Positions 22,829-61,674 of a stretch of DNA of 64,000 bases are shown piece after piece. The stretch lies in the IMG/VR virus record IMGVR_UViG_3300028591_000164, positions 17,948 to 81,947 of that record; one strand, given 5' to 3'. This DNA is from a virus (lineage: Duplodnaviria > Caudoviricetes). Within the stretch, counting starts at the first letter, position 1; the number at the start of each line of letters is the position of its first letter. The position numbers and the translations under genes were made by a program. The notes beneath the pieces were generated by a model that worked only from the letters and a program-made list of their open reading frames with translations, searched no databases and was not told the origin of the DNA.

Positions 22829-23761
22829 TTAACCGCCATCCTTTCTATTATATCCAAATTCTTGTGTTTTAAAGAAATTAATATAATACTTTTCTAATTC
22901 TCCAAGCTAATCTTTATCACAATATATTATGTATTCTATTGACCAATTCCATAGTCCTTCTTTAAGTAAGGCATGATGCACAGCCTAATCAGCAATTGAT
23001 TGTATTCCAACAGCACTTTTGAAATGGTCTTGTAAACGCTTTTTAATATTTGTGCTTTTTCCTATATATGGTTTACCAGTATTTATATTTGTTATTTTAT
23101 AAATACCAGGTTTATCTTCGATACCAACGCGCTTGAAAGTATCATCTATATAGGGCTTTACATATTCTGCCCACACTAATTTACTAATTATATCTGGATG
23201 TTGAACTTTTTCCGCGACATCGGTTAATAAGAAATTTATATCGTTATGATACTCTTCCGGAATTTGTATTGTATAGAATAGTTTTTCTTGCTATTCTTTA
23301 TCATACTATTGTAGTGGTTCAAGTAGGGCTTTAAATTTTTCTTCTTCCTAATTATAATTATTTTGAAGAATTTCAATTTTGTTATCAATATCTTTTTGGA
23401 CCTACTGTAAATTTGCTTCTAACCATGCGGCTTCCTACTTATAATAGGTTTCTGTATTGGCAAACTATTCTGCCGCGGTTGCTTCCTTTGCAGACCACTT
23501 ATCTTCAAAATCTTTTTTCCGCTATTTTTCTTGTTCTATAAGAAGATTATCTAAATTTTTAATTTTCTTATTAACTAAATCATGATAAGAATCCTATTTT
23601 ATTTGAATTGCATGTTCTAATGAACCCAATTCTTCTTCAAGATTATTAACTTCCTATTCAAGCTGATTTTTGCGGCTTTCATTTAAAACTGTTTTCTATG
23701 TAAGTTTTACTGCCAGGACAATAATACAGATTATTAATACTACAATAATTCCGACTTCCAT
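22829..23761 (-). CDS. Membrane-anchored coiled-coil protein with C-terminal GIY-YIG nuclease domain, 310 aa (~12 TAG)
   Basis: N-terminus MEVGIIVVLIICIIVLAVKL is TM-like, followed by a long E/Q/K-rich helix and then PGIYKITNINTGKPYIGKSTNIKKRLQDH...ELEKYYI...GYN. RBS GAGGTG; TAA at 22829-22831. Confidence 0.8.
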
Positions 23762-27528: not shown

Positions 27529-28604
27529 ATTCTCCAAACCCCCTTAGCAGATAGTGTTGTAAAATTATGATTAAATAAATCTTTTGCTGCGGGGTATTTT
27601 TCTTGTAATAAATTGCGTGCTTCTCGCGCCGGTCCGATTTTGCCGCTTTGCTAAACAAGAGTTCGCTCAGCCAAAGACTTATTTTTTTTAGAAGGCCCTT
27701 TGCTCCATCCTTCTACTAATTTAGAAAGATGAAATAGCGGGTCAACGTAGCCAAGAGATGGCTATTCATATTTAATTTTCAATGGGATTTTACAAGCCCA
27801 AAAAGAAAATAATATATTCATTTTATATATAAAATCTTCTAAATAAAACTTTGAATATCTAAAATCACCGCCAAGTGTAATAGACACATTAGAAGACTCT
27901 GTAATATCAGCCAAAAATTTATTTTTATAATTTTTTAACATATAATGTACTTCATCAAGTGGAATGTCCAAGTCAAGAATTATTTCATTTGCGCGACCCA
28001 TTTTTTCAATTCCACGTAAAGTAAAATACTATGTTAAAGTCTTACATCGTGCGGGATGGATAGTTAAAATTTTCGCGGGATTGCGTTCTGCTACTTTATT
28101 AAGAACTTCTTCCCATCCAGGATGAAATATATCTTTATCAAATATAAAAATACGTTTCTTTGTTTTTACTGGTGGAATTGGCAATACCTTGTCGCCCGCG
28201 AACATTCTATAATAACTATCATCCAATATATGTGTAATTACATGTGATTTAATTCCTTCTTGATATTTCTTTTTAAGTATTTCTTTATATATTGCTGGCC
28301 GCGGAATTGTGTAATCAACAATCTATTCTTCAAACGGAATATAATTTTTAGTAAAATTTGTGCCGCCAAAGATTATATTTGTTGCTTTTTTAAATGCATC
28401 AGGAACTTGAATTGGCTGTTCGCTTTCACTAAAAAAATATATTTTATCATAATTACTTAATTCAGTTTCATCTAAATCTATAAGGCGGCAGAAAATATTT
28501 CTTTCCGCCTTATAGTATGTTGCTAATTTCATTATTTCTATGTTAGGAATTAATTTTGTTATAGCAGAAGCGGAATAGAAATCATAATCAACGAGCCCAA
28601 TCAT
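27525..28604 (-). CDS. Hypothetical protein, 359 aa (>=4 TAG)
   Basis: Track ORFs 28323-28604, 28029-28226 and 27762-28001 share a frame and join across TAGs; ends at TGA 27525-27527. Confidence 0.7.
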
Positions 28605-31600
28605 TATTCATCCACCTCCGCGCGTTCAAACTGGAATGTTAAATTTTCGCCATCTATTAATGTAATTTTCGCAATAACTGGGAATACTGAGTTCTTCCGT
28701 TTTTTAGGAATGAAGTTATTTTCTCTTCTAATTCCTTGTACCATTAACTTAGTACCGCGACTAAACCAGCTCTTCTCAATAACGTGTTTTTTGCCATCTT
28801 CACCACGTTGCGATAACTGTTTATCATATATCGCAAACTGATTCTTATATACTTTAACAGTTACAACACCAGTTGGAGTTAATAACGTTACCGTATTATG
28901 TAATTTATCTTTATCAATTACTGTACCAATAATCTTATGTAAAGTATATACTTTAACTTCTTGTCCATTTGTTCCACGAAAACTATATTCAATTTCTGGT
29001 TCTTCTGGTAAAGTAAAGAAATCATCATATTGTGGTGCCGCGGTGGCAAGTTCATGCTCATGATAATAAAAACTAATACTATCCATTTCCCACTTGCTTA
29101 TATTACCATTACTATATTTTTCCGCGGCTTCATTGTAAATTGTGTCATTTAATTTCTGTAACATCTCTTGTTTATGCGCTTTTATATATTCTCTCATTGG
29201 GTCCATTGCTTTTTTATAAATGTTATCCCAAACTTTTTGAGAAATCTGCACACCATTTTCAATTAAATCCGCATCAAAATTCTTTGTAATATAATTGATT
29301 GCTGCATCATTTAATCTATAATAAATACCATCTTTATTATCTTTTAAGAACTTATTAAACAAGAATAACTTCTTATAAAATATCATATCTTCTGGGATTA
29401 AATCTTTTGTAATCAATGCCTGCATATTTCTTAAATTCAAATCTACCTTTTTATCAATAGTTGATTCAAGAAACTTCCGCATTATTTCTTCTCGTGGCAT
29501 TTTTTCAATTTCATCAAACGCCCCAGATTTAATCAAATTTACAATCTGTATAATATTTAATTTATTCTTTCCTAAAAAGTCCTTTAAAGATAAGTATGGG
29601 CGCTGCTCCATAATTTCAGTAATTTTTTCTCCGGATATACGTGCGATGCCGCGTAGTCCGTATAGAATTGTATTTGTTTCCGCAATTGGGGTAAATGTAT
29701 AAGAAGATTTATTAATATCTGGCGGCGAAACTTGAATCCCGTATCCACCTAATTTACCGATTATAGACGCGATACGCCCATAATCTATATTCTTTTGCTT
29801 TTTCTTTTTCTTATCTTCTTCATTCGCTGTAATGTCTTTATTTGCCTCTTCCCACTCTTCTAATTCTTCATCATCATCTTCTACCGCGGTATCAATAGCG
29901 TCATCATCCGGCGCCAATTCTACTTCAATCATTGCTTCATCATTATCATCTTCAAAATCGACGGTTTGCACACCACCACTATCTACAATAAGATTGGCTG
30001 TGTTCCAATATACGATTGGATACTTATATGCTAAATTCATTTCTTGAAGTGCAATTATTGAATAGGCGAGCGTGTGACTCGCATTAAAGCCATAGCCGCG
30101 GCTTAAAGCAATCTGAACATCCCATACATAATGGCAAAAACGTTCATCGCATCCTTTTTCTTTAATACCTTTAAAAAACTTTTCAGTTAATTCTTCATAT
30201 TCTTTTGGATTCTTTTTCGCAATACTTTTCCTTAACTTATCTGCGAATTGTAAGTCCCAGCCACCACATTCTGGCAACTGAACCAGTTTCATAAATTGTT
30301 CCTGCGTGATAGAAAGACCATTTGAAATATCAAGTTCTTTATGCATTAATTTCATTCGCTCTTCTGTCAATCCATATTCGCGCATTTCTTTATCCCACAT
30401 CCAAGGATGTTCACGAAATCGCGCATACTTATCAAGTGGTGATTCTGCGCCTTTCTCCGCAGCCATTAGACGAATAACGGAGTTTAAGGTTGCGAGGTCG
30501 TCTACATTACGCGGATTTGTTAAACCAATACCGCGAATACCACTATCTTTTTCCATCTGAAACAGTGAAATAATTTTGTGGTCATGCACCATATCCCACA
30601 TTTTAGGATCTTCGCGTTCAAGCTGATATACATTTAATGCATGTTCATATGTTTCTCTTAAAGTTGGATATTCTTTAATATAACCATCTTTGACTAACAT
30701 TTCTAAGCAAACTTGAATTTTATCCGCAGCTTCAACTGAAAGCAAGTCCATTTTAATTTCTGAAACATCTTCCAAATCATGAAGCTCAAATTGAGTTACA
30801 ATTGTTCCATCAGGCGCACGCATTAAGGCAGAAGATTCTGTAAAATCTTTGTCTTTAAACACAACACCGCCTGCGTGAATCAGTTATTCCTATGTTACCA
30901 TAGGCCCAGACTATATCTTCATTTCTTTCATTTTTTCTTCTCGTAAAGATTTGGCAAGCCTAAGAGCCTCTTCTTCACCATATTTTTCAACAGAAAAAGA
31001 TTTTGAATGTCTTTTATGATTTTCATCTGTCCATTCACAAATCCAACTTGCTTTTGCTATTCCTGGCCGCGCTTCTCTCTTATAAACGCCACGAATATCA
31101 CAAGAACTTTCTTTTCTTGGCTTGGCGTTTGCTGAATTAATTGCCCTGTTAGTTATTCGCAAATTTGTTTTTCTATTGTCTAGCGGGTCTCTATTAATAT
31201 GGTCTATAACCATATTATCGTTATCATTATGTAAAATAAACTAATGTAATCCGATTTTTTGTAATGAATTTTCATTACTTACAATTCGTATATCATTTTC
31301 ATGAACTAATAATGTCCATTTATATTGGCTTACTCTTGTATAATCGTCTTTATCTATTTTTCCAAACGCTTCTATATTTCGTGTATTTATAATATGTAAG
31401 ATATAATAATCATCTTTTTCAATATATTCATTTAATACATTTTTCCTAAAAGCGTTGGCCTTCTTATTTTCATTACGAATATTAGAAGTATAATGATGTA
31501 AATTTGTATGCGCGCGACATCCATTAATTTGTTCTACTAAACTTAATGAAACATTACATATTTTAGCAATATCTACATTGCGTTGCTGATTTTCTAAACG

Positions 31601-33599
31601 ATGAATAATATCTAAAATAATTTCATCCGAATACTTTTTCATATTTTCACCCCCTTTATATTATATTTTATTAGGCTTATGAAAGAAATGCGAGGCGCTT
31701 CGAGTGGTAGCATCTCCACTCTACTTGGCTACATTCATCACCAATAGTCGTTACACCTTCTACCAATAAGTAGCTTGGCACGGGATTATCACCAGCATTT
31801 TACGCGGGAGATTTCCCCGTTAGCAGAAAAATTTTCCACACCGCTTGCAAAGCGTTCACCTCGTTTTACATGGGCTATCACTTACGTTAACCCATTCCGC
31901 AAATCAATCCTTCAATACGATTCGCAACTTCCCACAATTTCGGATATTTATTTACTTCATTAATAAACATCTGATTCGGTTGAAGACCATTTTCTTCATC
32001 ACCATAATACATTTGCTTCAATGTATATAACTGTCCACGTTCCGCGCCAATTAATGAAGAAACATACTGTGCATTATCTACATCAATACCAAGACCGCGG
32101 CACGCGGTTAATATTGCGGATTTTGATTTTTCTAGTTTAAATGTTGCTACATTTGATACTCGGTTTTCTCCATAAAAATCTCTTAAATGTTCCAATACTT
32201 GCGCACGTTTAATACCAGAAATATCAACGTCAATATCAAGGACGCTAACACGCGCGGGATTGAGGAACCTCCACGGAAATGTAGGTGTTTTTTCGCGCAG
32301 GCAATTGATTTGAATAATATCTAACGCATATAGAAGTAAAAAACCACCGCCAGAACCACGCGCTGGCATGACTAATGTTCCCGCATTCCAACATTCATCT
32401 ATAATCTTTTGAAGATTTAAGAAATACGCGGACCACTGCGCTTTATTTACTTCGCTTGAAATCCAAGTCATTTCTAGACACTCATTAAGCGCATCGTATG
32501 CCGCTTGATTTTGTAAATCTTCATGCTCGTGAATACCTTCAATAAGCGCCAATGCTAATTGATTATCGGCATAATATTGAGATTTAACAAATTTTTCTAA
32601 TGCTGGCATTAGTCTTGTAAAAGCAAAAACTTCATCTGGTTGCCGCCGCTTAAATTTTCTCCATGGAAGTTGAGGAATTTCCAATGGCTTTAAAATACTA
32701 AAATCTTCACATTTATCTTTTATTTCTCTAATAGTTTTATACGCAGCCTCAATTTGTTCTTCTGTTAAATATGGAAAAAATGAACGAATCTCTTCATCCG
32801 TCATCATATAAGTTGTTTCATAAAAACTTTTAACTTCACGCTCACCGTCTTGTGCGTTTAAAAATGTTTCATGAATAAACGCATCTTCGGGCCGCAGATA
32901 ATGACTATCAGTTGTAATGATATATGGAATATTTAATTCTTCACTAATTTTTAATAACTGCTTATTTACAAATACCTGTTCTTTTCCATTTGAAGGCTGC
33001 ATCTCCAAATAAAAATTACCCACGCCAAAAATATTCTGAATATATAAACACCAATTCTTTGCTGTTTCATAAAAATTAATATCGTTGGTATTCATATATT
33101 GAAGTAAAAATCTATCTAACTGCGAACCCAAGCAAGCACTTGAAGCAATCAAATGCCCCGGATTTTTTCCTACTATTTCTTTTAAATCTCTATAATAAGT
33201 TGGACGCCGCCGCAACCTACGACTAATATATGACCGCTTCCATGCTCTTGTAGATAATTCACAAATTTGATGATAACCTTCCAAATCCTTGCATAAAAGA
33301 ATAAAGTGAAAATATCTATCACGGGTTTTATCAAAATTCTTCACATTTAAATCATTACGTGTCAGATAAATCTCATTGCCGCGGATTAACTTAAAATCTG
33401 GATGTTGTTCTTTAATTTTCTTATAATATTTTTCTGCTTTAATATAACTTGAAATTGTTTCATGGTCTGTAATCGCAACGCATTCATGCCCTAATTGAAT
33501 TGCTGTATCAATTAGGGCATTTACTTTATTTATACAATCACGAAGTGTCTCATTGCTATAATCGGTGTGATTATGCAAAGAACCAGGGTATAAACTCAC
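28604..33599 (-). CDS. dnaE: DNA polymerase III alpha subunit (family C, DnaE-type): exon 1 33599-31890, exon 2 30880-28604, 1328 aa spliced
   Basis: PHP motifs LHNHTDYS, AITDHE and TTDSHY; ARGSGGG; catalytic DIDVD; spliced junction ICGMG|IHAGGVVF; GYGFNASH; C-terminal OB fold. Confidence 0.93.
30881..31889 (-). ncRNA. Group I self-splicing intron (IA2-like), 1009 nt, in dnaE
   Basis: P1: exon AUGGGU pairs with GCCCAU, giving the U.G pair at the 5' splice site. P3 GAGGUG/CGCCUC. P4 ACGGGGAA/AAUCCCGU. R GUAACGACUA and S AAGAUAUAGUC (P7). P7.1 and P7.2 hairpins. 12-bp P8 CAUUUCUUUCAU/AUGAAAGAAAUG. P9 CCUAUG-GUAA-CAUAGG. Terminal G at 30881. Removing it restores frame and motif. Confidence 0.92.
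30884..31642 (-). CDS. Intron-encoded HNH homing endonuclease with AP2-like C-terminal domain, 252 aa in code 15, located in loop L8
   Basis: Two track ORFs join across TAG 31241-31243: GLH(Q)FIL...VIDHINRDPLDNRKTNLR. C-terminal RGVYKR...W...KSFSVEKYGEEEALRLA. The first TAA is at 30884-30886. Confidence 0.85.
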
Positions 33600-42088: not shown

Positions 42089-44476
42089 TCACATAATTTT
42101 AATTACAGCATTAGAATTACGTGCATCTATAATTTGCACGCCCGCAGTATTGCGACTCTGTACAGGAATACTATTGATTTCAAGTAGAACTGCCTTGTTA
42201 TTGGCGGTTACAAAAATCTTATCCATTTCATCTGTAATTGCGCACATTGCGGCAAGCTGCTCATCTTTTAAATTCATTACTATCGCGCCTTTTGCTCCGC
42301 GCGCGGTTTCTGAAAATTCTTCTAATCCAGTAATTTTTCCACGTCCAGAACTAGAAATTGTTAGTAAGCCACGATATGTAATATTTTCTCTAATAAGTGC
42401 AGCGCATGATACATATTCATCTTTATTTAATTTAATTGCTTTAACGCCCTTTGTTGCGCGCCCAGTAGAACTTACTTCTGATAGATTGTAATAGTTATAA
42501 GAACCATTTACATTGCCAATAAATACTTTATCATTATCAGAATGAGATAGATATACGCCTATTAGTGTATCATTCTCTTCAATTTTTACCGCGACTAAGC
42601 CTTTCTTATTTCTACTATTATACTCCTTAACCAACGTCTTTTTAATAAATCCATTTTTACTTATCGTAATAAGATATTTGTATGCATTTAAGGAAGTTGT
42701 ATCAATTAATAGAATAGGTTTTTCGTCATCTTGAAGCGCGATTAATTCATAAACAGAATAATCTTTATCAGTATCTAACTCTCCAAGTGAGAAGCTATAC
42801 ATTCTACCGCGATCAGTAAATGCCGCGATCGTACCAAGATTTGTAGAATACAAAGTGTTAATTAAATTTGCGTTCTTTGGCGGCTTAATATTAACACCCT
42901 TTCTGCCGCGTTTTGCGCCTTGAAGATTATCTTTTTCAATTAAACGAATCATGTTATTATCAAATAACATAATACCCAATTCTTTTTCTTCAATTGGTTC
43001 AGTCGATTCATCATCTTGTTCTACTATATTTAGTATCTTTGTTCTACGTTCATCACCAAATTTAGTAGCAACATCACGTAAAATTTTAATTAGTTCATTA
43101 TCCAAAGCCGTAGAATCATTTAATAAGTAGTGGCACCACTCAATTTTTTCAGTAAGTTCTTCAGCTTCGTTATTCAATTTTACTATGTCTAATTTTGTTA
43201 ATGAAGAAAGCTTCATAGCGAGAATTGCTTTGGCTTGTTCTTCATTAAAATCGTATTTTAAAATTAGTTTTTCCGCAGCTTCGGTTGGATTTGAAGACGC
43301 GCGAATAAGTGCTACAACTTCATCAATAATTGAATACGCCTTAATTAGACCATCTACAATGTTTTTTCGCGCGAGAGCCTTATCTAAATCAAATTGAACG
43401 ATATTGCGCTCACACTCGCGGATGTGTTTAATATACGCATCACATGCTGCACGCCAACCAAACAATTTAGGAAATCTACCTTGGTCTAGTAAAATCATAT
43501 TTACAGAATACCAATTTTCTAGTGAGGTATCCTTATATAATTTTGCTATCATTTTATTTGGATTTGTGCCCTTCGTTAAATAAATACGAATGTCTGCGGT
43601 TTTCTTTGTGTGGTCTACAACACGCTCAATTCCATAACTTTCATTTTCACTGGTTATTGCCGCGAGTTGGTCAATTACTGTATTTGTAAATACACCATAC
43701 GGTAATTCTGTTGCTTGAATCATATTCTGGTCAGGGAAATATTCAAGTTTCGCACGTAAGCGAATTGACTCACCCTTACCAACACGTAGACTTTCTTTTA
43801 CTTGCGCAGCATTTGTAATTGTGCCACCAGTCGCAAAATCTGGTTTACAATAAATTTCATTAAAATCTATATCTGGATTTTGAATAATTTTAATAAGTGC
43901 TTCATTTACTTCGCGTAAATTAAACTGCGGAACAGAGGTTGCCATAGCAACAGCGATACCAGAACATCCATTTACAATATTCCAAAATCCAATTGAAGGA
44001 AATACGGATGGAATTTCTTCTGTATCATCATAATTCCAATATTTCTGATTTCCAATCGCATTCTTTTTTAATCCATCAAAGAGAATATTCGCGGTTTCTG
44101 CCGCTTTCATTTCTACATAACGCGCGGCCGCGTGACTATCTGGTGAAGATGGATTACCATAGTTACCTTGAACCGCTTCAAGGGGATAACGATATGACCA
44201 AGGACGGGCTGCGCGGATAAATGTATCATACATCGCAGCGTCACCGTGAACATATGATTGCGTCATTGCCGCGGCGACGCTTTTCTGTGCTTTCTGATAC
44301 TTATCTTTATATGTAAGTTTATTTGTAAATTGTGCATACAAGCCTTGCCGCAGACCAATTTTCAGCATATCTCTTACATCTGGAATTGCTCGTTCCTGCG
44401 CGACCGATGCAGCATAGGCTAAGAATGCACTTTCAGTAGTTTTTTGGAAGTCTACTTCTTTAATCAATGGGTTCAC
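42089..44476 (-). CDS. gyrA: Type IIA topoisomerase subunit A (GyrA/ParC family)
   Basis: RAIPDVRDMLK, VHGDAAMY, catalytic AAARYVE, GIAVAMAT and C-terminal beta-pinwheel repeats. Confidence 0.92.
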   Translation of the reverse strand: MNPLIKEVDFQKTTESAFLAYAASVAQERAIPDVRDMLKIGLRQGLYAQFTNKLTYKDKYQKAQKSVAAAMTQSYVHGDAAMYDTFIRAARPWSYRYPLEAVQGNYGNPSSPDSHAAARYVEMKAAETANILFDGLKKNAIGNQKYWNYDDTEEIPSVFPSIGFWNIVNGCSGIAVAMATSVPQFNLREVNEALIKIIQNPDIDFNEIYCKPDFATGGTITNAAQVKESLRVGKGESIRLRAKLEYFPDQNMIQATELPYGVFTNTVIDQLAAITSENESYGIERVVDHTKKTADIRIYLTKGTNPNKMIAKLYKDTSLENWYSVNMILLDQGRFPKLFGWRAACDAYIKHIRECERNIVQFDLDKALARKNIVDGLIKAYSIIDEVVALIRASSNPTEAAEKLILKYDFNEEQAKAILAMKLSSLTKLDIVKLNNEAEELTEKIEWCHYLLNDSTALDNELIKILRDVATKFGDERRTKILNIVEQDDESTEPIEEKELGIMLFDNNMIRLIEKDNLQGAKRGRKGVNIKPPKNANLINTLYSTNLGTIAAFTDRGRMYSFSLGELDTDKDYSVYELIALQDDEKPILLIDTTSLNAYKYLITISKNGFIKKTLVKEYNSRNKKGLVAVKIEENDTLIGVYLSHSDNDKVFIGNVNGSYNYYNLSEVSSTGRATKGVKAIKLNKDEYVSCAALIRENITYRGLLTISSSGRGKITGLEEFSETARGAKGAIVMNLKDEQLAAMCAITDEMDKIFVTANNKAVLLEINSIPVQSRNTAGVQIIDARNSNAVIKIM

Positions 44477-44497
44477 TTCCTTTTCTTTATTTATTAT

Positions 44498-44526
44498 ATT
44501 ATACTATAAAATTTAATTATTGTCAA
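44498..44526 (-). promoter_or_regulatory. SigA-type promoter for the topoisomerase A subunit
   Basis: TTGACA-17-TATAAT; the -35 box overlaps the endonuclease stop. Confidence 0.75.
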
Positions 44527-45464
44527 TTATTAATTAACCATTTATCTGACATAATATTTTCTAATGTAATTTTATCATAATCCCAGTATGGAATGCGTTT
44601 TAAGGGAATATTATGGGATTTTGCATATTCATCTTTTATCTTATCATATATTTGTCGTTCTTCAAGTGTTGTATTACCACGATCAGTTTCTTCAAAATGT
44701 TGTGTCCCATCAAATTCAAGTAAAAATTGATTATTTATAAGAAAATCATATTTGAGTTTATAATGTTTTGGTGAAATTAAATCATCATATACCTTTTGAG
44801 TTTTGAATGGTATGTTATTTTTTAATAATAATTGAATTATTTTTTCTTCGCCTTTTGAACGTATACAACCGCAACTCATTGTATGGCCACTAATTAATTT
44901 ACTAGTAACCACTTCACATGTATTGCCACAATCGCATTTACACAAATGGACCCTTTCTCCACGATTATTAGAGTAAAGATATGATAATACAGTTAATTTC
45001 CCAAATTTTTTCCCAATTATATCTTTTCTAGAACTTAAAGAAGCCTGTAATTTTTGCTCACAACCACAACTTTTTGTATGTCCTGTAGTTAAACAAGAAG
45101 TAATTACATAGGTTATATTACCGCAATCACATTGACATTTCCAAAGTCTTTGTCTATAATTATTACTTCCAACTGGTTCTAAAACTAATAATTTATTAAA
45201 TTTTTTTCCAACTAAATTATACCCTTTAGTAAGAGCATTTGTTTCTTTTCTAAAACATCCGCAAGATATAGTATGACCATTGCGAATATTTCCGCCAGAA
45301 GCAGTAAAAATATTTCCACAATTACATTTACATTTCCAATATATTTGTTTTGATTGAATATGCATTTTTGTATATTCTAAATCTTCTTCTATAACTATAA
45401 TACGACTATTGGGTACGCCATGCTCTTTCATAACCCAACCAGTCATATCAATTTTTTTCGCCAT
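44523..45464 (-). CDS. Free-standing homing-endonuclease-like protein (three CxCxCG repeats + Vsr/DUF559-like nuclease domain)
   Basis: Repeats WKCKCNCGN, WKCQCDCGN and HLCKCDCGN with SCGC; C-terminal LKYDF...EFDGTQH...RIPY. Confidence 0.7.
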   Translation of the reverse strand: MAKKIDMTGWVMKEHGVPNSRIIVIEEDLEYTKMHIQSKQIYWKCKCNCGNIFTASGGNIRNGHTISCGCFRKETNALTKGYNLVGKKFNKLLVLEPVGSNNYRQRLWKCQCDCGNITYVITSCLTTGHTKSCGCEQKLQASLSSRKDIIGKKFGKLTVLSYLYSNNRGERVHLCKCDCGNTCEVVTSKLISGHTMSCGCIRSKGEEKIIQLLLKNNIPFKTQKVYDDLISPKHYKLKYDFLINNQFLLEFDGTQHFEETDRGNTTLEERQIYDKIKDEYAKSHNIPLKRIPYWDYDKITLENIMSDKWLINN

Positions 45465-45468
45465 TATA

Positions 45469-47340
45469 TCACCTATTCAAAATATTAAAATCAACATTCT
45501 CAAATAAGAATTCTCTTCTACCTTCAACTTCCGGTCCCATTAGTATCATTAAACTTTCCGCTGCGGCTTCAACATCATGAATAGTAAGAACTTCAAGGCG
45601 TCTTTCAGTTGGATGAAGCATAGATTTTTCCATATCATCTGCACTTAATTCGCCCAACCCTTTTGCCCTTGTGATATCCCAATTTTCACGACCTTTTCTA
45701 ATAGAAGCAAGTTCATTATCATCATAAGCGAATAATTTTTGATTACCTTTTTCAATTTTATAAAGTGGAGCGCGAAGCCAACACAGACGGCCTTCCATTA
45801 CAAAAGAGGGCATTAGTGTATGGAATAAAGTTGCAATTAGACACATAATAGAATATCCATCAACATCAGCATCTGTTGCAATTGCGACTTTACCATAATT
45901 TAATTTTCTACTATTATATTTTTCTTGAATGCCACATCCAAGCGCCATAATAATATCAGATACTTCCTGATTTTCAAGACATTCATCAAGCGGATGCTTC
46001 AATAAATTTTTAACCTTTCCGCGCACAGCGTATAACGCTTCTTTATTAACATCACGTGCGGGCATCAGGCCGCCAAGAGCAGAATTACCTTCACAGATAA
46101 TAAGCATAGAATCTTGGCCATGCTTTTCGCAATCTTTAAATTTATCTGATGAAGTAATTTTTTGTTTCTTATGTTCTATCTCTTTTTTCTCAAAATTAAG
46201 AACGCCCTGACGTGCTTTTTCAGCCGCGGCCTCAGCCTTCTTATCGCGCGCAAGTAAAGCAATAATTTTATCAAAATCTTCTCTATTTTTTACAATCCAG
46301 TCTTTAATTGCTTCGGTGAAAACAGTCTGGGTATAGCCACGAAGCTCTTGATTCTGAATCTTATCTTTAACCTGATTCTGATATATTGGATGCGGATGCT
46401 TGATATTAATAATTGTTACTAAACCTTTACGAATCATATCACTATCAAATGATTCTTTGGACTGGTCATTAATAGTGCGCGTAAAAGCAGTTTTCATACC
46501 TGTGATTGGAGTGCCGCCACCACTATTTAACGCGCCATTGGAAAATACATAACTTTTTTCTTTCCCCGCTGTCCATTGTGCAAAAACTTCAATATCAACA
46601 TTATCTTCAAAATGCTTATTAGCATAAATATAATTTTTATGTAATGGATTTGAAATTTTTGCCGCGGCGAAATCTTTTAAACCATTCTTTGATAAATAAG
46701 TAAAACGCTTGTCATTAGTGCCATCAATTAATATAAAACTAACATTAGGAATAAAATAACTAGTTAGTTCTAATTCATCTTTTATTCTATTTATATCAAA
46801 AGCAGGTGTAGCATCATCAATATGAAAAATACTTTTATCGGGCTTAAAATATATTGTAGTCCCTGTTTCTTTTGTCTTTCTTATTTGCTTAGCTACTGGA
46901 TTTTGTGGAATACCATCTATAAATGTAAGTTCCCATTCTGCGCCATCACGTCGCGTCCATACTGTAAATTGCTTTGAACAAACGCATACAGTAGAAGCAC
47001 CGACACCGTGCATACCGCGAACGCGCGAATAATTTTTAGTATCAAATTTTCCAGAGCTATGAGCAGAGGTATATAACTCAATTAGAACTTCTTCACAATC
47101 TTTATTGGGACCGCGAGGAACACCAGCACCCGCATCAGAAATTGTAATTTCATTGGGCATTACAAGTACTTCGATTTTATCGCCGCGGCCCATAATAGCC
47201 TCATCACAAGAGTTATTTAAAATTTCAAGAAAACAATTAAAAACTGCGTCTTGCCCATCAGCGCCAATATACATGCCAGGAGTTGTCCTCGCCGCGGTGC
47301 GAAAGTCTCTTACTTGAATTGAATTTGCATCATAAGCCAC
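45469..47340 (-). CDS. gyrB: Type IIA topoisomerase subunit B (GyrB/ParE family)
   Basis: PGMYIG, EILNNSCDE, GMHGVGAS, CEGNSA, RGKVKN, DADVDG and KGLGE. Confidence 0.93.
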   Translation of the reverse strand: MAYDANSIQVRDFRTAARTTPGMYIGADGQDAVFNCFLEILNNSCDEAIMGRGDKIEVLVMPNEITISDAGAGVPRGPNKDCEEVLIELYTSAHSSGKFDTKNYSRVRGMHGVGASTVCVCSKQFTVWTRRDGAEWELTFIDGIPQNPVAKQIRKTKETGTTIYFKPDKSIFHIDDATPAFDINRIKDELELTSYFIPNVSFILIDGTNDKRFTYLSKNGLKDFAAAKISNPLHKNYIYANKHFEDNVDIEVFAQWTAGKEKSYVFSNGALNSGGGTPITGMKTAFTRTINDQSKESFDSDMIRKGLVTIINIKHPHPIYQNQVKDKIQNQELRGYTQTVFTEAIKDWIVKNREDFDKIIALLARDKKAEAAAEKARQGVLNFEKKEIEHKKQKITSSDKFKDCEKHGQDSMLIICEGNSALGGLMPARDVNKEALYAVRGKVKNLLKHPLDECLENQEVSDIIMALGCGIQEKYNSRKLNYGKVAIATDADVDGYSIMCLIATLFHTLMPSFVMEGRLCWLRAPLYKIEKGNQKLFAYDDNELASIRKGRENWDITRAKGLGELSADDMEKSMLHPTERRLEVLTIHDVEAAAESLMILMGPEVEGRREFLFENVDFNILNR

Positions 47341-47368
47341 TATATCAATCCTCCTTTTCTTTCATTTA

Positions 47369-47414
47369 ATTATATCATAAATTAAAGAAAAAGTCAAGTT
47401 ATTTAACTTGACTT
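47369..47414 (-). repeat. Composite terminator/promoter repeat, copy 1 of 3 (others at 48258-48300 and 50089-50135)
   Basis: Inverted repeat AAGTCAAGTT-4-AACTTGACTT whose 3' arm is the -35 of TTGACTTTTTCTTTAATTTATGATATAAT. Confidence 0.75.
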
Positions 47415-47820
47415 AATTAATACGAGATTCATATTCTTTGATTTCTTGTTCAAGACAAAATTCTCCTTTGCTATTAATTATTTGATTTTTAAAATGTTCA
47501 CCAAAATAATATTCATTGTCTTTTAAATAAATATCTATCCATAATAATGAATAAGCAATAATTATTGTATTATTTTCTTTAATAGTTAAACTCATCCAGG
47601 GTAAATCATAACAATTATTTTTGTTTGGACAAGAAATTTTATTAATTTTTTTATCTATTATATCACACCAATAATTAATAATCCAATTTTTATCATATTC
47701 TTGCATAGTCTTCTTTTCTCTTGAAGTTGCTTCTTCATAACGAGTTGTAAAACATATTTCATATTTATTTTTATAAATAAATTTTTGAGTATTCATATCA
47801 AACTGTTTAAACCAAGACAA
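47413..47820 (-). CDS. Hypothetical protein, 135 aa
   Basis: Track ORF (TTG start). Confidence 0.5.
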   Translation of the reverse strand: MSWFKQFDMNTQKFIYKNKYEICFTTRYEEATSREKKTMQEYDKNWIINYWCDIIDKKINKISCPNKNNCYDLPWMSLTIKENNTIIIAYSLLWIDIYLKDNEYYFGEHFKNQIINSKGEFCLEQEIKEYESRIN

Positions 47821-48228
47821 CTAAATATTGTTTGGAATATTAATACCACTTATTGTAGATTTTATAATTGACTGTTTTGCTTCTTTTTCTTTTTCTTTTT
47901 TAATGTTGTTTTTAGGAGTTATAAGATTATTAAATTCTTCTCTAGTATAAATATTCCATTCCGGTTCAGGTAAGGTGAAAGTAGGAGAAGCAAATTGCAT
48001 GTCTACTTTATTTAAGGGCGGATGAAATTTTGTAATATAATATTTTTCATATAACATCATATCTCCACTTGAAAGAAAAGTGGCGATGGCGATTTTAGTC
48101 ACATTATTATATTGGATGTTTTCACTTAAATGTTGTTTAAAACGTTTAATAAAATCATTTGTTCGCCCAACATATAATAATTCATCATTAATATAATATT
48201 TATATATATAATATTTTTCTTCTTCCAC
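47821..48228 (-). CDS. Small GIY-YIG-domain protein
   Basis: YYIYKYY...LLYVGRTNDFIKRFKQH...EKYYI. Confidence 0.65.
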   Translation of the reverse strand: MEEEKYYIYKYYINDELLYVGRTNDFIKRFKQHLSENIQYNNVTKIAIATFLSSGDMMLYEKYYITKFHPPLNKVDMQFASPTFTLPEPEWNIYTREEFNNLITPKNNIKKEKEKEAKQSIIKSTISGINIPNNI

Positions 48229-48257
48229 TTATTTTTCCCTTTTCCTTTTTATAATTA

Positions 48258-48300
48258 ATTATAATATAAATTAAAGAAAAAGTCAACTATTGAGTTGACT
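48258..48300 (-). repeat. Composite terminator/promoter repeat, copy 2
   Basis: AGTCAACT-4-AGTTGACT followed by TTTTCTTTAATTTATAT-TATAAT. Confidence 0.75.
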
Positions 48301-49277
48301 TATATTTTTAAAATATTTTTAATATGATTTGCAATTGCTTGTGCCAATTGAACCGGTACTGCATTTCCTACCATTTTATATCCATCATCAACTTTATCAT
48401 AAATAAAAATAAAATCATCAGGAAATCCTTGTAACCGTGCACATTCTCTAACAGTTAGTCGTCGATAAAGATTTTCATATCCAGGCGCAAAAATAAATTT
48501 ATCAGTCTCAATTTTTACCATTTTTGGTGCCTGAGGATGTAATTGGCATTGTCTACCAGATGCTTGAACTGTAAATCCACATTCTTCCCATCCTCTAACT
48601 CGATTACGTGACATATACATGGAAGAAAAATCTCCAATAAAATATTCATGATTTGGAATTTTTAATTCGTTGTTTGCTTTATTTGATTTTTTTGCTGGAA
48701 CAGCTGAATCCTATAAATCTTGTATTGCTTCTCGTAAATTTGTTTTTTTACAAGAAGGGAGGTCTAAATTTGGAATAATATTTAAGTCTTTTCTAATCCC
48801 AAAAAAAATAACTCTTTCTCTATCTTGTGGTACCCCAACAGAAGAAGCATTAATTTTTTTTATAATTACATTATAATTTGCTTCATCAAAACTTTTAATA
48901 AAGCTATTTAAAGCATCTTTATTTTTTTCAAATAAAATTCCTGGAACATTTTCACAAATAAAGAATTTAGGCTTTTTTATTTTTAATACTTCAATATAAT
49001 TAATAAAAAGTTGCCCTCTTGAATCTTTAATTCCTTTTTGAGCGCCAGCTGCTGACCAAGATTGGCAAGGTGGTCCACCAATTAACCCATCTGCATCAGG
49101 AATAGTATTAATATCTATTTTTCTTAAATCTTGATGGTTAAGGGCACAAGTATGATTTTTTTCATATGTAGCCCAGATATGGGAATCAAATTCATTAGCA
49201 AAAACAATTTCAAAACCTGCGTTTTCAAAACCTAAATCTAACCCACCCGCGCCAGAAAATAAACTAATAATTTTCAT
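48300..49277 (-). CDS. C5-cytosine DNA methyltransferase, M.HaeIII-like (GGCC predicted), 325 aa (1 TAG)
   Basis: FSGAGG, GGPPCQ, ENV and QDRERV; TAG at 48711-48713; then PNHEYFIG...MSRNRVR...[17 protein letters not shown] (HaeIII-type TRD), [15 protein letters not shown] and GNAVP. Confidence 0.9.
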
Positions 49278-50056
49278 AAATTATTCACTTCCTTAAAATG
49301 TGCTAAAATATCCTTTTCTGCTCCATATTTTAATGGGGCATCAAATATCATTTCATAATCTGTTAAATTATGCCACTTAATATAAACAGCCAATGCTCTA
49401 TTACCATCAATTTTATCTTCATCCATTCGGTAATTTACTGCTCTAAAAGTAGCATACATTTCTTCTTTATAGTCTGCTGCAAAGGATAAATTATCAATAA
49501 CTTCTTGTGCAGTCATTTTATTTTCACTATTTAATAGTAAGCAATTAGCAACTCCACAATCTTTTATTAATTTATCTTTAACCTTAACAGTTCTTTTTTC
49601 TTGCGGTAAATTTGTACCATATAATATTTCTTCTTTTTGCGCTTCGGTTAATTTTAATTTAGCGCAAAGTTCTCCACAAGCTTTGTTAATAATATCAAAT
49701 CGGAAACCCATAGTATAAGAATTTTTTTTAATATTTCTTACTTGTTCGGGATAAAATACTTGTCTTTTGAGAAAATAAGGTTTCAATTCATTTATAGCAT
49801 TTTGTAAAATTGAATAATCTCTAATATATGTATCATACCATTTTTTAGTTATTTTATTTTGAAGAAAATCCGCATTTGACTGTTTTACACTTATTTTTAT
49901 TTCAGTATTATCATCTAGAAGAATATAAATATCTGTTTTCCCTTCACCACCGTGGTAGAGCGGTTTATCACAAAAAATTACAGTTCTTGTTTCGCCATGA
50001 TATAAAATTTTTGTACCGCTCTTAAAAAGTTCAATAATGCGTTTTTCTTCTTGCAT
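49274..50056 (-). CDS. Putative type II restriction endonuclease (PD-(D/E)XK-like), 260 aa, no TAG
   Basis: GEGKTDIYI...EIKISVKQ motif; ATGA overlap with the methyltransferase start; shared promoter. Confidence 0.55.
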   Translation of the reverse strand: MQEEKRIIELFKSGTKILYHGETRTVIFCDKPLYHGGEGKTDIYILLDDNTEIKISVKQSNADFLQNKITKKWYDTYIRDYSILQNAINELKPYFLKRQVFYPEQVRNIKKNSYTMGFRFDIINKACGELCAKLKLTEAQKEEILYGTNLPQEKRTVKVKDKLIKDCGVANCLLLNSENKMTAQEVIDNLSFAADYKEEMYATFRAVNYRMDEDKIDGNRALAVYIKWHNLTDYEMIFDAPLKYGAEKDILAHFKEVNNL

Positions 50057-50088
50057 AATTTCCTTTTCCTTTCTTCTTTTATACAATT

Positions 50089-50135
50089 ATAATATCATAA
50101 ATTAAAGAAAAAGTCAACTATTTAATCAGTTGACT
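50089..50135 (-). repeat. Composite terminator/promoter repeat, copy 3
   Basis: AGTCAACT-8-AGTTGACT followed by TTTTCTTTAATTTATGA-TATTAT. Confidence 0.7.
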
Positions 50136-50986
50136 AGAATTTGATTTAGATATTCATCAAGAGTATTGTAATTGTATGGAATTTCAATTAATTTAATATT
50201 ATGTGTACTACAATATTCTCGTTTTAAATTATCGTGAATTTGCTGTTTTTTAAATTGTTCTTCTCCGCCAAAAAAGTCTATTGGCTCATAATGCTGTTTT
50301 CCTTGATTTTCTATTGCGTATATTATTTGTTTTTCTTTATTTCTTATAATAAAATCATAAGATAATTGTCCACCACCAGTTCCATATAATTTATCAAATT
50401 TTACATGTGTTTCATATTTAATATTATGTAATTCAAGCCAATCAGCAGTAGCACGTTCATCCATTGACATACTACCCAAGCATCTTTCACATGCAAAATT
50501 TTTATTTTTATGTAATGTATTTCCTCGTTTGAATCCATATCTACCACAAGAACATTTATATGGCCACCATGCTAATCCAAATTTATCTGTATATCCATCT
50601 TTTGCCGGACCAATTACTAATTCTCCAAAAATCTGTCCTTCTAAGTTTTCTGTACGACTAATATTAATACCATTTTTAGCAGCGTGATTGCCTTCACTAC
50701 TACGCCATGGGTCTTCAAACGGACGCTTATGAGTCAATGAGCATTTTTTACAACAAAGTGTTCGCGGACCTTGCTGTTTGTCTGGATTAAATTCAAGCCT
50801 ATCTACTCGTCCTTCAAATTCGATTCCACAAAATGGGCACTCTACCATAACATAGTGCCGTAGTATACCATTTGGTTTACTGGCAGTAGGTTCGTCTCTA
50901 CGTTCATATTCTTCACCAACACATTTGATATTACTGACTGGAAAAATATATCCAGGTTTAATATAGCTATAATTCTTTTTTACCAT
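50126..50986 (-). CDS. Second Zn-finger + Vsr/DUF559-like endonuclease
   Basis: CPFC, CCKKC, CSCG and CERC; LSYDFII...IENQGKQHY...IEIPY, a C-terminus similar to 44523-45464. Confidence 0.68.
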   Translation of the reverse strand: MVKKNYSYIKPGYIFPVSNIKCVGEEYERRDEPTASKPNGILRHYVMVECPFCGIEFEGRVDRLEFNPDKQQGPRTLCCKKCSLTHKRPFEDPWRSSEGNHAAKNGINISRTENLEGQIFGELVIGPAKDGYTDKFGLAWWPYKCSCGRYGFKRGNTLHKNKNFACERCLGSMSMDERATADWLELHNIKYETHVKFDKLYGTGGGQLSYDFIIRNKEKQIIYAIENQGKQHYEPIDFFGGEEQFKKQQIHDNLKREYCSTHNIKLIEIPYNYNTLDEYLNQILVN

Positions 50987-59334: not shown

Positions 59335-61674
59335 TTATAGATTATCTACATTACTTAATTGTTGCTATAATCCTTGAATAATATCTAACATTCCTGCCAT
59401 AAAAACTAAATTTATTGTTACTTTAGATTCTGCTTCAGATTTTACATAGTTCCAACGTTCTTCGGGAGAACTATATTGTTGAGCCGCTCTTAAAGTATTA
59501 TAACTAATTGGATTATGTAACTCTATTTTTGTAGAAGCGTTATTATAAATTATGCTTCTTTGTTTTTCTGTAATATCTTTTGCAACAAGTTCTAAATTAT
59601 TACATATCTCTGTTAATATATAAGATTGAGGAAAATATAAATCATTAACAAATATTAAATGTAATGCTCCAGGTGCGGCGGCGCGTACATTTTCAGAAAG
59701 ACTTTCTAAAAAATTTTTTGCATTAGCAAATCCATCATCAAATAATACCATAGCTGCGCCAGCGAGCAGATAATCTTTTAATGCTTGTTCATATCCACGT
59801 CCAATAACAGATCCATCAAAAGAATTTAATAATGCTGTAATAATTGTTTCAGCATCTAGTATGCTGATTCCACCAGCGTCTAACATGCTAACAATATTAG
59901 GAATAGCATCAACAACTTTTCCGCCGCCTCCTAATGATCCTTCATGGAATCCTTCATTTATATAAGCAGTGTCTTCATATTTTTTTACACTAATGCTAGT
60001 TGATAAAAATTTATATAATTGGTCTATTTTATCTTTTTCTTGCTGTGTTTTTGCTTTTTTAAGAGCTTTTTCTTTCTATCGAGCTAATTTTTTTAATTCA
60101 TCTACATATGCTTTTTTAGCTTCATCAATATTAGTATGGCCGCTACTTCTTTTATTATAATTAGTTAAAAAGTTTTTACCAAAATTATTAATTTTATTTG
60201 TAATTGCATCATATTGTTTTTTTGTCAATGTTTGTTGTAGTTCTTCAAATGGAACCGGATTTAAAAAATAAGAGATTAATAAATCAGATTTAAGTTTAAT
60301 TAATTTTCCTGGAATATAAGCCGGTCCGTAAGAATACATTGCTGCCTATACTGCTGCGATAATTTCTGCATAATCTGGGCCAGTAATATTAAAATTATTA
60401 ATACTAGAAGCTAATATGTCACGTATATCAATTGAATTGTTATTGACTAATGTTTGCTATAAAATCTAAATAAGCTAATTACGCTTTTCTTTTGCCGCAC
60501 CTTTTAAATTATTGAGTCTTTTTTTAATTTCCGCATGTAATGCTTTAGATAAAACACCCTTAAGTCCCGCGATTTGCTTGGGTGCTAATTCATTTTTTTT
60601 TCCGGTTTGGAGAGCATCATATGCATCTTTTATAGGGGTTATTAATTTATTATTTTTATAAGAAGTAGAAGAAAATAAATCTTGTCGTATATCATTATCT
60701 AATAATTCAAATAAATCTGCTAAATTTTCACCGTCTTTTTCTGCTTTCTAAATAAATTGCTCAAGTCGGTCAGATCCAGTTTTTTCTATCCATGTAACTG
60801 CATTTGTGTAAGACTCTTCTATATCTTGAGTGGCAATTGTTTTAATAGATTCGGCAATGGCTTGTGATAGTTTATTAATATTTAATTGTTCGTCGGATGC
60901 TAAAGCTGCCAAGGCCATATTAAAAACTTTATTTTTGATAGAAGAAACAGACGCGCCATGTGATATTGCTGATTGAGCTGCTGTGATAACATCATCGCTA
61001 AGTAAAATTTGCGATAACTAATTTTTAATATTTTTAATATTAAAATTATTTCCCTATACATGGCCATGATTTTGTTTTAATGCGGCCTATACGCCCTCTC
61101 TTACTCGTGGAAATTTTCCAAGACGGTGCATATGTTTAATAGATTTTTCACTGATAAAGGGAATATTATCTTCATTCTCTATTATATTTCCATCTTTATC
61201 TTTTTTTGGGCTGAATTTTATATCACTTGTATAATTGGTTAATGCTTTAGTAATTTCAGATAAATTAGATTCATGGATATGCAATGTTTCTTTATATTTT
61301 TCATAACTTGTATAGGCCACATTTATATCTTGAATAAATGTTAAATAATTAAAACTTCCATCTTTATTATAATCTTTTATTTCGACTCCTTGTTTACTGA
61401 CAAGTTCTATGAATTTTTTTTCTTGTGCTAATTCAGCTGAGGCCCAGTTTCTTAATTTATTTATATAATCTGCAATGTATGAAGTAACTCCTTCTTCATT
61501 TTGTTTTTCAATAGTAATTTTTGATAAATTAGATAAATTTGCAACCGCTGTATTTGCAACACTTATTCCAGCCGCTCCTTCTTCATACAAACTAGAAAAA
61601 TAGATGTAGCGCCCCCATGATGGTGGCTAAAAATTAAATTGCTATCGTCTTGGTATTGATTTTTTTTTAGCCAT
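59335..61674 (-). CDS. Large hypothetical protein, 779 aa (>=10 TAG)
   Basis: Track ORFs 61087-61590, 60076-60339 and 59365-59886 are in one frame. The gaps were read manually and contain only TAG. ATG at 61674; TAA at 59335-59337. Confidence 0.78.

Follow-up and report, generated by a model that had tools for sequence, protein, structure and literature searches.

Does a single in-frame amber codon in a phage methyltransferase gene serve as a timer, or is it simply one more glutamine codon? The question is raised by a minus-strand cassette at positions 48300-50056 of a 64,000-nucleotide stretch (the window, bases 17948-81947 of the 81,947-bp contig of IMG/VR virus record IMGVR_UViG_3300028591_000164, which has 34 % G+C), where a gene for a putative restriction endonuclease (R) is followed by one for a C5-cytosine DNA methyltransferase (M). 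A first-pass annotation, made from the letters and open reading frames (ORFs) alone, described a TAG-free upstream ORF overlapping at ATGA a methyltransferase gene whose single TAG lies between motif VIII and the target-recognition domain (TRD), and proposed a phage restriction-modification (R-M) pair in which the nuclease acts early and methylation waits for recoding. The layout stands, coordinates included, and the phage R-M pair is borne out, with a GGCC specificity predicted from homology. The observation is right and the R-M identity well founded. Regulation by the TAG is not established; most simply, and in our judgement probably, this is an ordinary R-M operon carried by a phage for which TAG is a plain glutamine codon.

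The phage is an approximately 82-kb ruminant-gut phage that reads TAG as Gln. ORFs of at least 100 aa in the six frames cover 50.7 kb with TAG as a stop and 77.9 kb with TAG opened, whereupon a frame of 6,220 aa containing 188 TAGs appears, and 310 in-frame TAGs were counted in the genome. As in genetic code 15, the TAGs lie in frame at Gln positions of conserved genes, with TerL, portal protein, DnaB and NrdD genes among the carriers, and genes end in TAA or TGA. The TAG share of Gln-type codons, the denominator used here for TAG usage, is 40 % in the structural arm and 12 % in the replication arm. The first of these is the plus arm (TerL, portal and a giant protein); the minus arm encodes PhoH, Clp, two permeases, deoxyribosyltransferases, topoisomerase II, Sak4, DnaB and primase, together with RecJ, a split DNA polymerase, NrdD, dUTPase and RuvC. 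TerL is about 31-36 % identical to the TerLs of Firmicute phages, and the sequencing runs containing the window sequence are gut samples of sheep, cattle and goat; this is a phage of ruminant-gut Firmicutes, and the cassette lies in its TAG-poor replication arm. ARAGORN found no tRNA, hence no tRNA(CUA), in the window or the full 81,947-bp contig, and Rfam gave none at gathering score, so the moment at which TAG decoding sets in cannot be placed.

Under the standard code the cassette breaks into three minus-strand ORFs of 270 aa (49274-50086), 188 aa (48711-49277) and 106 aa (48300-48620), the last two of which merge, once TAG is taken as a residue, into a single frame of 325 aa containing one TAG. 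The 325-aa product matches PF00145 (E-value 9.1e-98, residues 1-320) and TIGR00675 (2.4e-82), and motifs I, IV (PCQ), VI (ENV), VIII (QxRxR), IX and X (GNAVP) were all seen. The likeness of its TRD to that of M.HaeIII, which the annotation had pointed out, is real: phmmer aligns residues 1-322 with M.HaeIII (PDB 1DCT/3UBT) at an E-value of 3e-121, unbroken through the TRD (190-270), at about 60 % identity as estimated by eye from the alignment. By this homology, M very likely has GGCC specificity, with GGm5CC as the predicted product. ORF and motif reading also upheld the description of the standard-code product, a protein of 188 aa in which motifs I-VIII are present (FSGAGG, PPCQ, ENV, QDRER) and the TRD and motifs IX and X are absent.

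The TAG at codon 189 aligns with a Lys in M.HaeIII. Across 69 loci with an M homologue adjacent to an R-family gene, the same column holds Q 38 times, K 16 times, A seven times and V six times, and never a stop; the consensus around it in the 20 closest database proteins is DLQD. Since the column is mostly Gln and the consensus DLQD, Gln is the natural reading of the codon, and a CAG-to-TAG change, the simplest origin, is the most likely one. The 136 codons 3′ of the TAG retain all invariant residues of the TRD and motifs IX and X. The 188-aa product is recorded from five contigs, and an RNA-library contig of an independent run (X8) spans 48460-48761 and is identical to the window, TAG codon included, from which it appears that the codon is fixed in this phage species. 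Among the differences listed for three further runs (X2, X5 and X7) none falls at 48711-48713, and only X8 was counted as evidence. Three short methyltransferase matches (P0142, P0149 and P0182) lie outside the phage clade and are uninformative on the TAG.

The R gene runs from an ATG at 50056, preceded by a purine-rich ribosome-binding stretch, to a TGA at 49274, and the 260-aa form is also present in the protein database; the TTG at 50086, which would give a 270-aa form, is an unlikely start, being inside the promoter just 3′ of the −10 box. For R no family was found in Pfam (E up to 1), NCBIfam or PHROGs, a PDB sequence search was empty at E up to 10, and the profiles of the HaeIII and NgoPII endonuclease families (PF09556 and PF09521) gave no match at E up to 1. 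Its own family consists of proteins of 260-307 aa in which, over 34 sequences, D42, K54, S56 and K58 are invariant and E52 is present in at least 90 %. These catalytic residues map onto strands 43-47 and 52-58 of an AlphaFold model with a predicted local distance difference test score of 94.8. When the model was compared with 48,161 chains, the top three matches were the restriction enzymes MspI (Z 6.6), HinP1I (5.9) and R.HhaI (4.8), all with 4-bp sites and followed by generic PD-(D/E)XK nucleases, although Z values below 8 are moderate and not decisive; Foldseek placed HinP1I best at an E-value of 0.02 and returned nothing at E up to 0.001. The strongest evidence for the nuclease identity of R is its context of neighbouring methyltransferases. 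A C5-methyltransferase, about 35-77 % identical to M, occurs in the fetched flanks of 90 of the 96 R-homologue loci from viral and genome collections, mostly directly adjacent and in varying orientations, and in about 69 of these loci the partner shares at least 50 % identity with M and so counts as M.HaeIII-like; among the matches listed, one likewise lies near the R homologue in 70 of 80 additional metagenome loci.

The closest characterized relatives were reached through two bacterial loci. BLASTP matches R to an ORF of Gardnerella vaginalis (locus L084, E-value 9e-44) and to one of Lysinibacillus (L091, 5e-43), both at 33-34 % identity. The Gardnerella ORF, with its D47, S65 and K67 and a methyltransferase gene that converges on it at a distance of 51 nt, agrees with the published description of R.Gva14018I, for which cleavage of GGCC was shown experimentally (PMC7559349), and the Lysinibacillus ORF starts at TTG and lies 5′ of a 425-aa methyltransferase, a BspRI-like layout (PMC2978348). 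The link to BspRI and R.Gva14018I is thus made via loci matching the published features and not via the published sequences themselves. On this homology R belongs to the BspRI family as a short-form member and is predicted to cleave GGCC. The nuclease assignment, moderate in the first-pass annotation, is now strong in view of the family homology, the invariant catalytic residues and the neighbouring methyltransferases. Relatives of R found by scanning IMG/VR are all long-form, with identities of at most 38 %, and comparison of the cassette DNA with 50,697 phage records gave as its only match one of 55 nt, which is at chance level.

The two genes form one unit (Table 1). The R-M promoter reads TTGACT, 17 nt, TATTAT, with a TG upstream of the −10 box, and belongs to one of three hairpin-plus-promoter units in the window, with none elsewhere and none expected by chance. 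With a shared promoter, a shared terminator and the 4-nt overlap, R and M lie on a single transcript, so any difference in their timing could be translational only. We read the cassette as a complete Type IIP GGCC restriction-modification operon that is probably active. The phage genome has 97 GGCC sites (observed/expected 0.8); GGCC is therefore not avoided, and the phage relies on methylation instead of site avoidance. As a side observation, the 3.4 kb at 47188-50561 that include the operon contain no GGCC where about four are expected (P ~0.02; for the operon by itself, P ~0.1), a deviation too weak to be used; the BspRI locus is likewise free of GGCC (PMC2978348). Contig-wide, the observed/expected ratios of the other 4-bp palindromes include 0.33 for GATC and 0.41 for TCGA, both strongly avoided, and 1.46 for CGCG, which is enriched.

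Table 1. Features of the R-M operon and its surroundings (positions in the window)
Feature	Position	Strand	Basis or remark
Restriction endonuclease R, 260 aa, no TAG, short-form BspRI/R.Gva14018I family (PD-(D/E)XK; D42, E52-x-K54, S56-x-K58), predicted	49274..50056	-	homology, model, gene context
M.HaeIII-like C5-cytosine DNA methyltransferase M, 325 aa (TAG=Gln), predicted	48300..49277	-	Pfam, TIGRFAM and PDB sequence matches
Sole in-frame TAG of M, codon 189, in variable linker between motif VIII (QDRER, 151-155) and TRD	48711..48713	-	frame, homologue alignment
ATGA overlap of R stop and M start (translational coupling)	49274..49277	-	same 4-nt overlap in L017, L098 and L099
Control unit of R-M operon: hairpin (50135-50112), its 3′ arm with the −35 box, then sigma-70-type promoter	50089..50135	-	one of three near-identical units
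M terminator hairpin (48301-48280) fused to second promoter unit, driving the GIY-YIG gene	48258..48301	-	sequence
Third hairpin-promoter unit, upstream of topoisomerase II	47369-47414	-	near-identical to the other two
GIY-YIG homing-endonuclease-like gene, 271 codons, one TAG (136)	47413..48228	-	missing in strain variant (joint 47359>48248)
HNH/homing-endonuclease-like gene, 286 aa	50126..50986	-	missing in strain variant (joint 50135>51012) and in L017

Related cassettes show how the codon has fared elsewhere. A sheep-rumen fragment binned with a Clostridia genome (L017) shares its gene order with the window (deoxyribosyltransferase, then R, then M, one further gene and the topoisomerase II large subunit), and the R-M cassette must therefore be old in this phage group; its M is 77 % and its R 52 % identical to those of the window, codon 189 is GTT, and ten genes on the fragment have neither an in-frame TAG nor a TAG stop. 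Two further pairs, the closest relatives, are known from protein records (P0004 and P0068, with R and M respectively 79 % and 88 % identical to the window; P0005 and P0069, 65 % and 79 %, on a 182,860-bp contig); both M proteins are full length, and at position 189 a sense codon gives Gln in P0068 and Lys in P0069. At least two short-form metagenome loci (L098 and L099) encode a 265-aa R without TAG in 4-nt overlap with a 326-aa M that is 68-70 % identical to the M of the window. The M gene of L098 reads TAG at codon 19 and again at codon 151, the invariant Gln of motif VIII, and AAA at codon 189; that of L099 reads TAG at codons 19 and 324 and CAA at 189; ORFs neighbouring both cassettes also contain TAGs. 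The annotation had named CAA or AAA at this codon in related recoded phages as a finding that would refute its proposal, and exactly these are present in L099 and L098, alongside the GTT of L017 and the Gln of P0068. The asymmetry between R and M recurs in one other lineage but without codon-for-codon conservation, and the L098 and L099 DNAs, at 83 % identity, are not independent of each other. L098 also carries a tRNA(CUA) gene at 1647-1736, 0.7 kb upstream of R. This tRNA measures 90 nt and its variable arm is long, a class II form as in tRNAs for Ser, Leu and Tyr, yet the TAGs of the adjacent M gene fall at Gln sites, one of them the invariant Gln151.

Nor does the asymmetry as such go beyond chance. 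R has nine Gln-type codons and M 14, and the probability of no TAG in R together with at least one in M is about 0.3 at the TAG rate of the arm (8-12 % of Gln-type codons) and about 0.24 at that of the local TAG-poor block, where 16 kb contain four TAGs among 161 Gln-type codons. Pooling of the three cassettes of the window, L098 and L099 gives 0 of 31 TAGs per Gln-type codons for R and 5 of 57 for M (hypergeometric p ~0.11, or ~0.17 with the shared TAG19 counted once), and across the cassettes R has fewer Gln codons than M (5-11 vs 13-16). Other genes depend on TAG decoding as well, namely those for DnaB (codon 387, in DnaB_C 256-489), Sak4 (codon 28, in Walker A), NrdD, RecJ and RuvC, and with replication genes in the same position M is not specially gated.

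Could the TAG nevertheless be a selected translational gate? TAG-free R would then be made upon transcription and attack host or competitor DNA that lacks methylation, with the infecting genome, already methylated, out of danger; full-length M would follow only once amber codons are suppressed, together with the replication genes that need TAG decoding. We think this reading as a whole improbable. The pattern is consistent with such a gate in each of the three cassettes whose surroundings are known to be recoded, with no TAG in R and one or two in M, at codon 189 in the window and at 19, 151 and 324 in the others, and in L098 the tRNA(CUA) gene is close at hand. Short-form R clusters are all full length in the standard code, with no R fragments on long contigs; the promoter is of host type and the operon lies within a TAG-poor block; and, with DnaB and Sak4 themselves TAG-dependent, unmethylated progeny could not build up ahead of M. 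However, codon 189 is not conserved, the methyltransferases of L017, P0068 and P0069 are TAG-free, R is the poorer of the two genes in Gln codons and the pooled p-values are those given above, two of the three cassettes are non-independent, and this contig has no suppressor tRNA. The nuclease-first schedule of the annotation is accordingly weakly supported: recurrence of the pattern in L098 and L099 speaks for it, and the unconserved codon, the chance probability of ~0.2-0.3 and the TAG dependence of replication genes speak against it. It is likewise unlikely, in the wider form of the idea, that in TAG-recoded phages a coupled R-M operon keeps M amber-dependent and R TAG-free such that the code switch sets the R:M ratio, with the nuclease turned first on unmethylated host or rival DNA and self-protection delayed until decoding by the phage, and with it TAG-dependent replication, has set in. 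We found no published precedent for a recoding gate or for an R-M pair with differential TAG content.

Neither a split enzyme nor a decaying gene explains the TAG any better, and both were rejected. The 188-aa part with motifs I-VIII might assemble with a separately started C-terminal part (ATG codon 220), much like natural M.AquI or the fragments of GGCC methyltransferases that complement each other, making read-through unnecessary; codon 189 lies at the natural split site of M.AquI, and the 106-aa ORF begins at 48620. Complementation between C5-methyltransferase fragments is documented for M.SssI (PMC3404938). A piece started at codon 220 would, however, miss residues 189-219 with the invariant N199, N202, N209, E211, Y212, G215 and S218, the frame runs on through a TAG that is sense genome-wide, and the TAGs at codons 19 and 151 of L098 are not explained by any split model, which leaves assembly from two parts scarcely credible. 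That the TAG is a true stop, M a pseudogene and the cassette eroding or R inactive is only slightly less remote. The absence of a suppressor tRNA from the contig would fit such decay, as would the variability of the flanking homing-endonuclease genes between strains and a joint in one run (47397>50077) that may lack the whole cassette, but the invariant residues encoded after the TAG are all kept, the 188-aa product comes from five contigs with the codon unchanged in X8, and some 310 other in-frame TAGs in genes such as those for TerL, portal protein, DnaB and NrdD mark TAG as sense; moreover, the catalytic residues of R are intact, and with 97 GGCC sites in its genome the phage would lose its own DNA to an active R if M were missing.

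There remain points that weigh against the plain-glutamine account. R is TAG-free and M TAG-containing in three of three cassettes in recoded context, which represent two lineages and different codons; no TAG-split R homologue was found among 5.8 billion proteins; and in the near-TAG-free 16-kb block real internal TAGs are confined to about two genes, M among them. The enzyme activities and the GGCC specificity are predictions from homology, and the contig, having no tRNA(CUA), supplies neither the source nor the timing of TAG decoding.

An ordinary R-M operon with a glutamine TAG would work as follows. A single host-type promoter drives R and then, through the ATGA overlap, M, with the hairpin terminator closing the unit. 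Codon 189 would be a normal Gln codon, most likely the product of a CAG-to-TAG change where the linker is free of constraint, and later fixed in the phage species. Full-length M depends on amber decoding just as DnaB (the replicative helicase), the ATPase Sak4, NrdD and RecJ do, and methylation and DNA replication would be enabled under one translational condition, leaving the TAG no role as a separate timer. The operon would probably cut unmethylated GGCC DNA, either the host chromosome or that of rival phages, and M would shield the phage's 97 GGCC sites from its own enzyme and from GGCC enzymes of the host.

Several known systems resemble parts of this one. In chloroviruses with R-M systems such as CviAII the methyltransferase protects viral DNA and the endonuclease degrades unmethylated host DNA early, although these are eukaryotic viruses with the standard code. 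The Bacillus phages SPbeta, phi3T and rho11 carry orphan multispecific methyltransferases without R, and methyltransferases of Firmicute phages classically target GGCC. Neither the chlorovirus R-M systems nor these Bacillus-phage enzymes are known to couple R and M by stop-codon recoding. From the HaeIII system the phage operon shares M, alike over its full length including the TRD, but not R, which is not of the HaeIII/NgoPII endonuclease family. A further likeness is to BspRI of Lysinibacillus/Bacillus sphaericus (PMC2978348) and Gva14018I (PMC7559349), in which R is homologous at 33-34 % identity (E-value ~1e-43) with the same PD-(D/E)XK residues and has a GGCC-type C5-methyltransferase next door, in R-then-M order in BspRI; an MspI/HinP1I-like fold is also reported for monomeric BspRI, and the R model has its best structural matches in MspI and HinP1I, at Z values (below 8) that are not decisive. 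In contrast to both, the phage R is shorter (260 aa vs 298-304) without the C-terminal tail, starts at ATG instead of TTG, overlaps its partner by 4 nt where the others have a 77-nt gap or a convergent layout, and resides in a lytic-type, TAG-recoded genome; the partner is of the compact M.HaeIII type (325 aa) and not of the 424-aa M.BspRI type. As for the genome, code-15 gut phages that read TAG as Gln (PMC9523058, PMC10607447 and PMC11210395) are alike in having TAG at Gln positions, densely in the structural and sparsely in the replication arm, and TAA or TGA ends, although this 82-kb contig is without a suppressor tRNA.

The surroundings of the operon are mobile. In the independent gut run X2, contigs join across the GIY-YIG and the HNH-like genes (47359>48248 and 50135>51012) with R-M retained, and the joint 47397>50077 of the same run may leave out R-M together with the GIY-YIG gene; another, 51778>52212, skips a 134-aa ORF, a gene that also varies between strains. 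The three control units bracket the R-M and GIY-YIG genes in an arrangement that resembles cassette insertion through duplication of a control unit, and a similar unit is found 3′ of the L017 methyltransferase gene. TAG136 of the GIY-YIG gene separates the catalytic domain exactly from the C-terminal half, so that with TAG as a stop only the nuclease domain would be made. The minus arm is rich in homing-endonuclease-like genes: a GIY-YIG-type gene with 12 TAGs lies at 22829-23761, the DNA polymerase (28604-33599, minus strand) is split by an HNH gene containing three TAGs into parts of 570 and 752 aa, and the topoisomerase II subunits (42089-47340, minus strand) are parted by another HNH gene. 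A 779-aa minus-strand ORF at 59335-61674, near the outer end of the arm, contains 12 TAGs where its neighbours are otherwise TAG-free, and has no match in Pfam or PHROG. The contig starts exactly at the ATG of TerL, and its final minus-strand gene begins 37 nt from the opposite end.

Complete Type II R-M systems are uncommon in phages, and the one described here extends the BspRI family into recoded ruminant-gut phages and marks out a clade of short-form enzymes in which the operon, R overlapping into M, is conserved. The case also bears on whether recoding can set the dosage or timing of individual genes, beyond the broad early/late split that has already been proposed. Were the TAG a gate after all, the cassette would be lethal or useless to a standard-code cell that captured it; if there is no gate, the operon warns against over-reading single in-frame TAGs in recoded phages.

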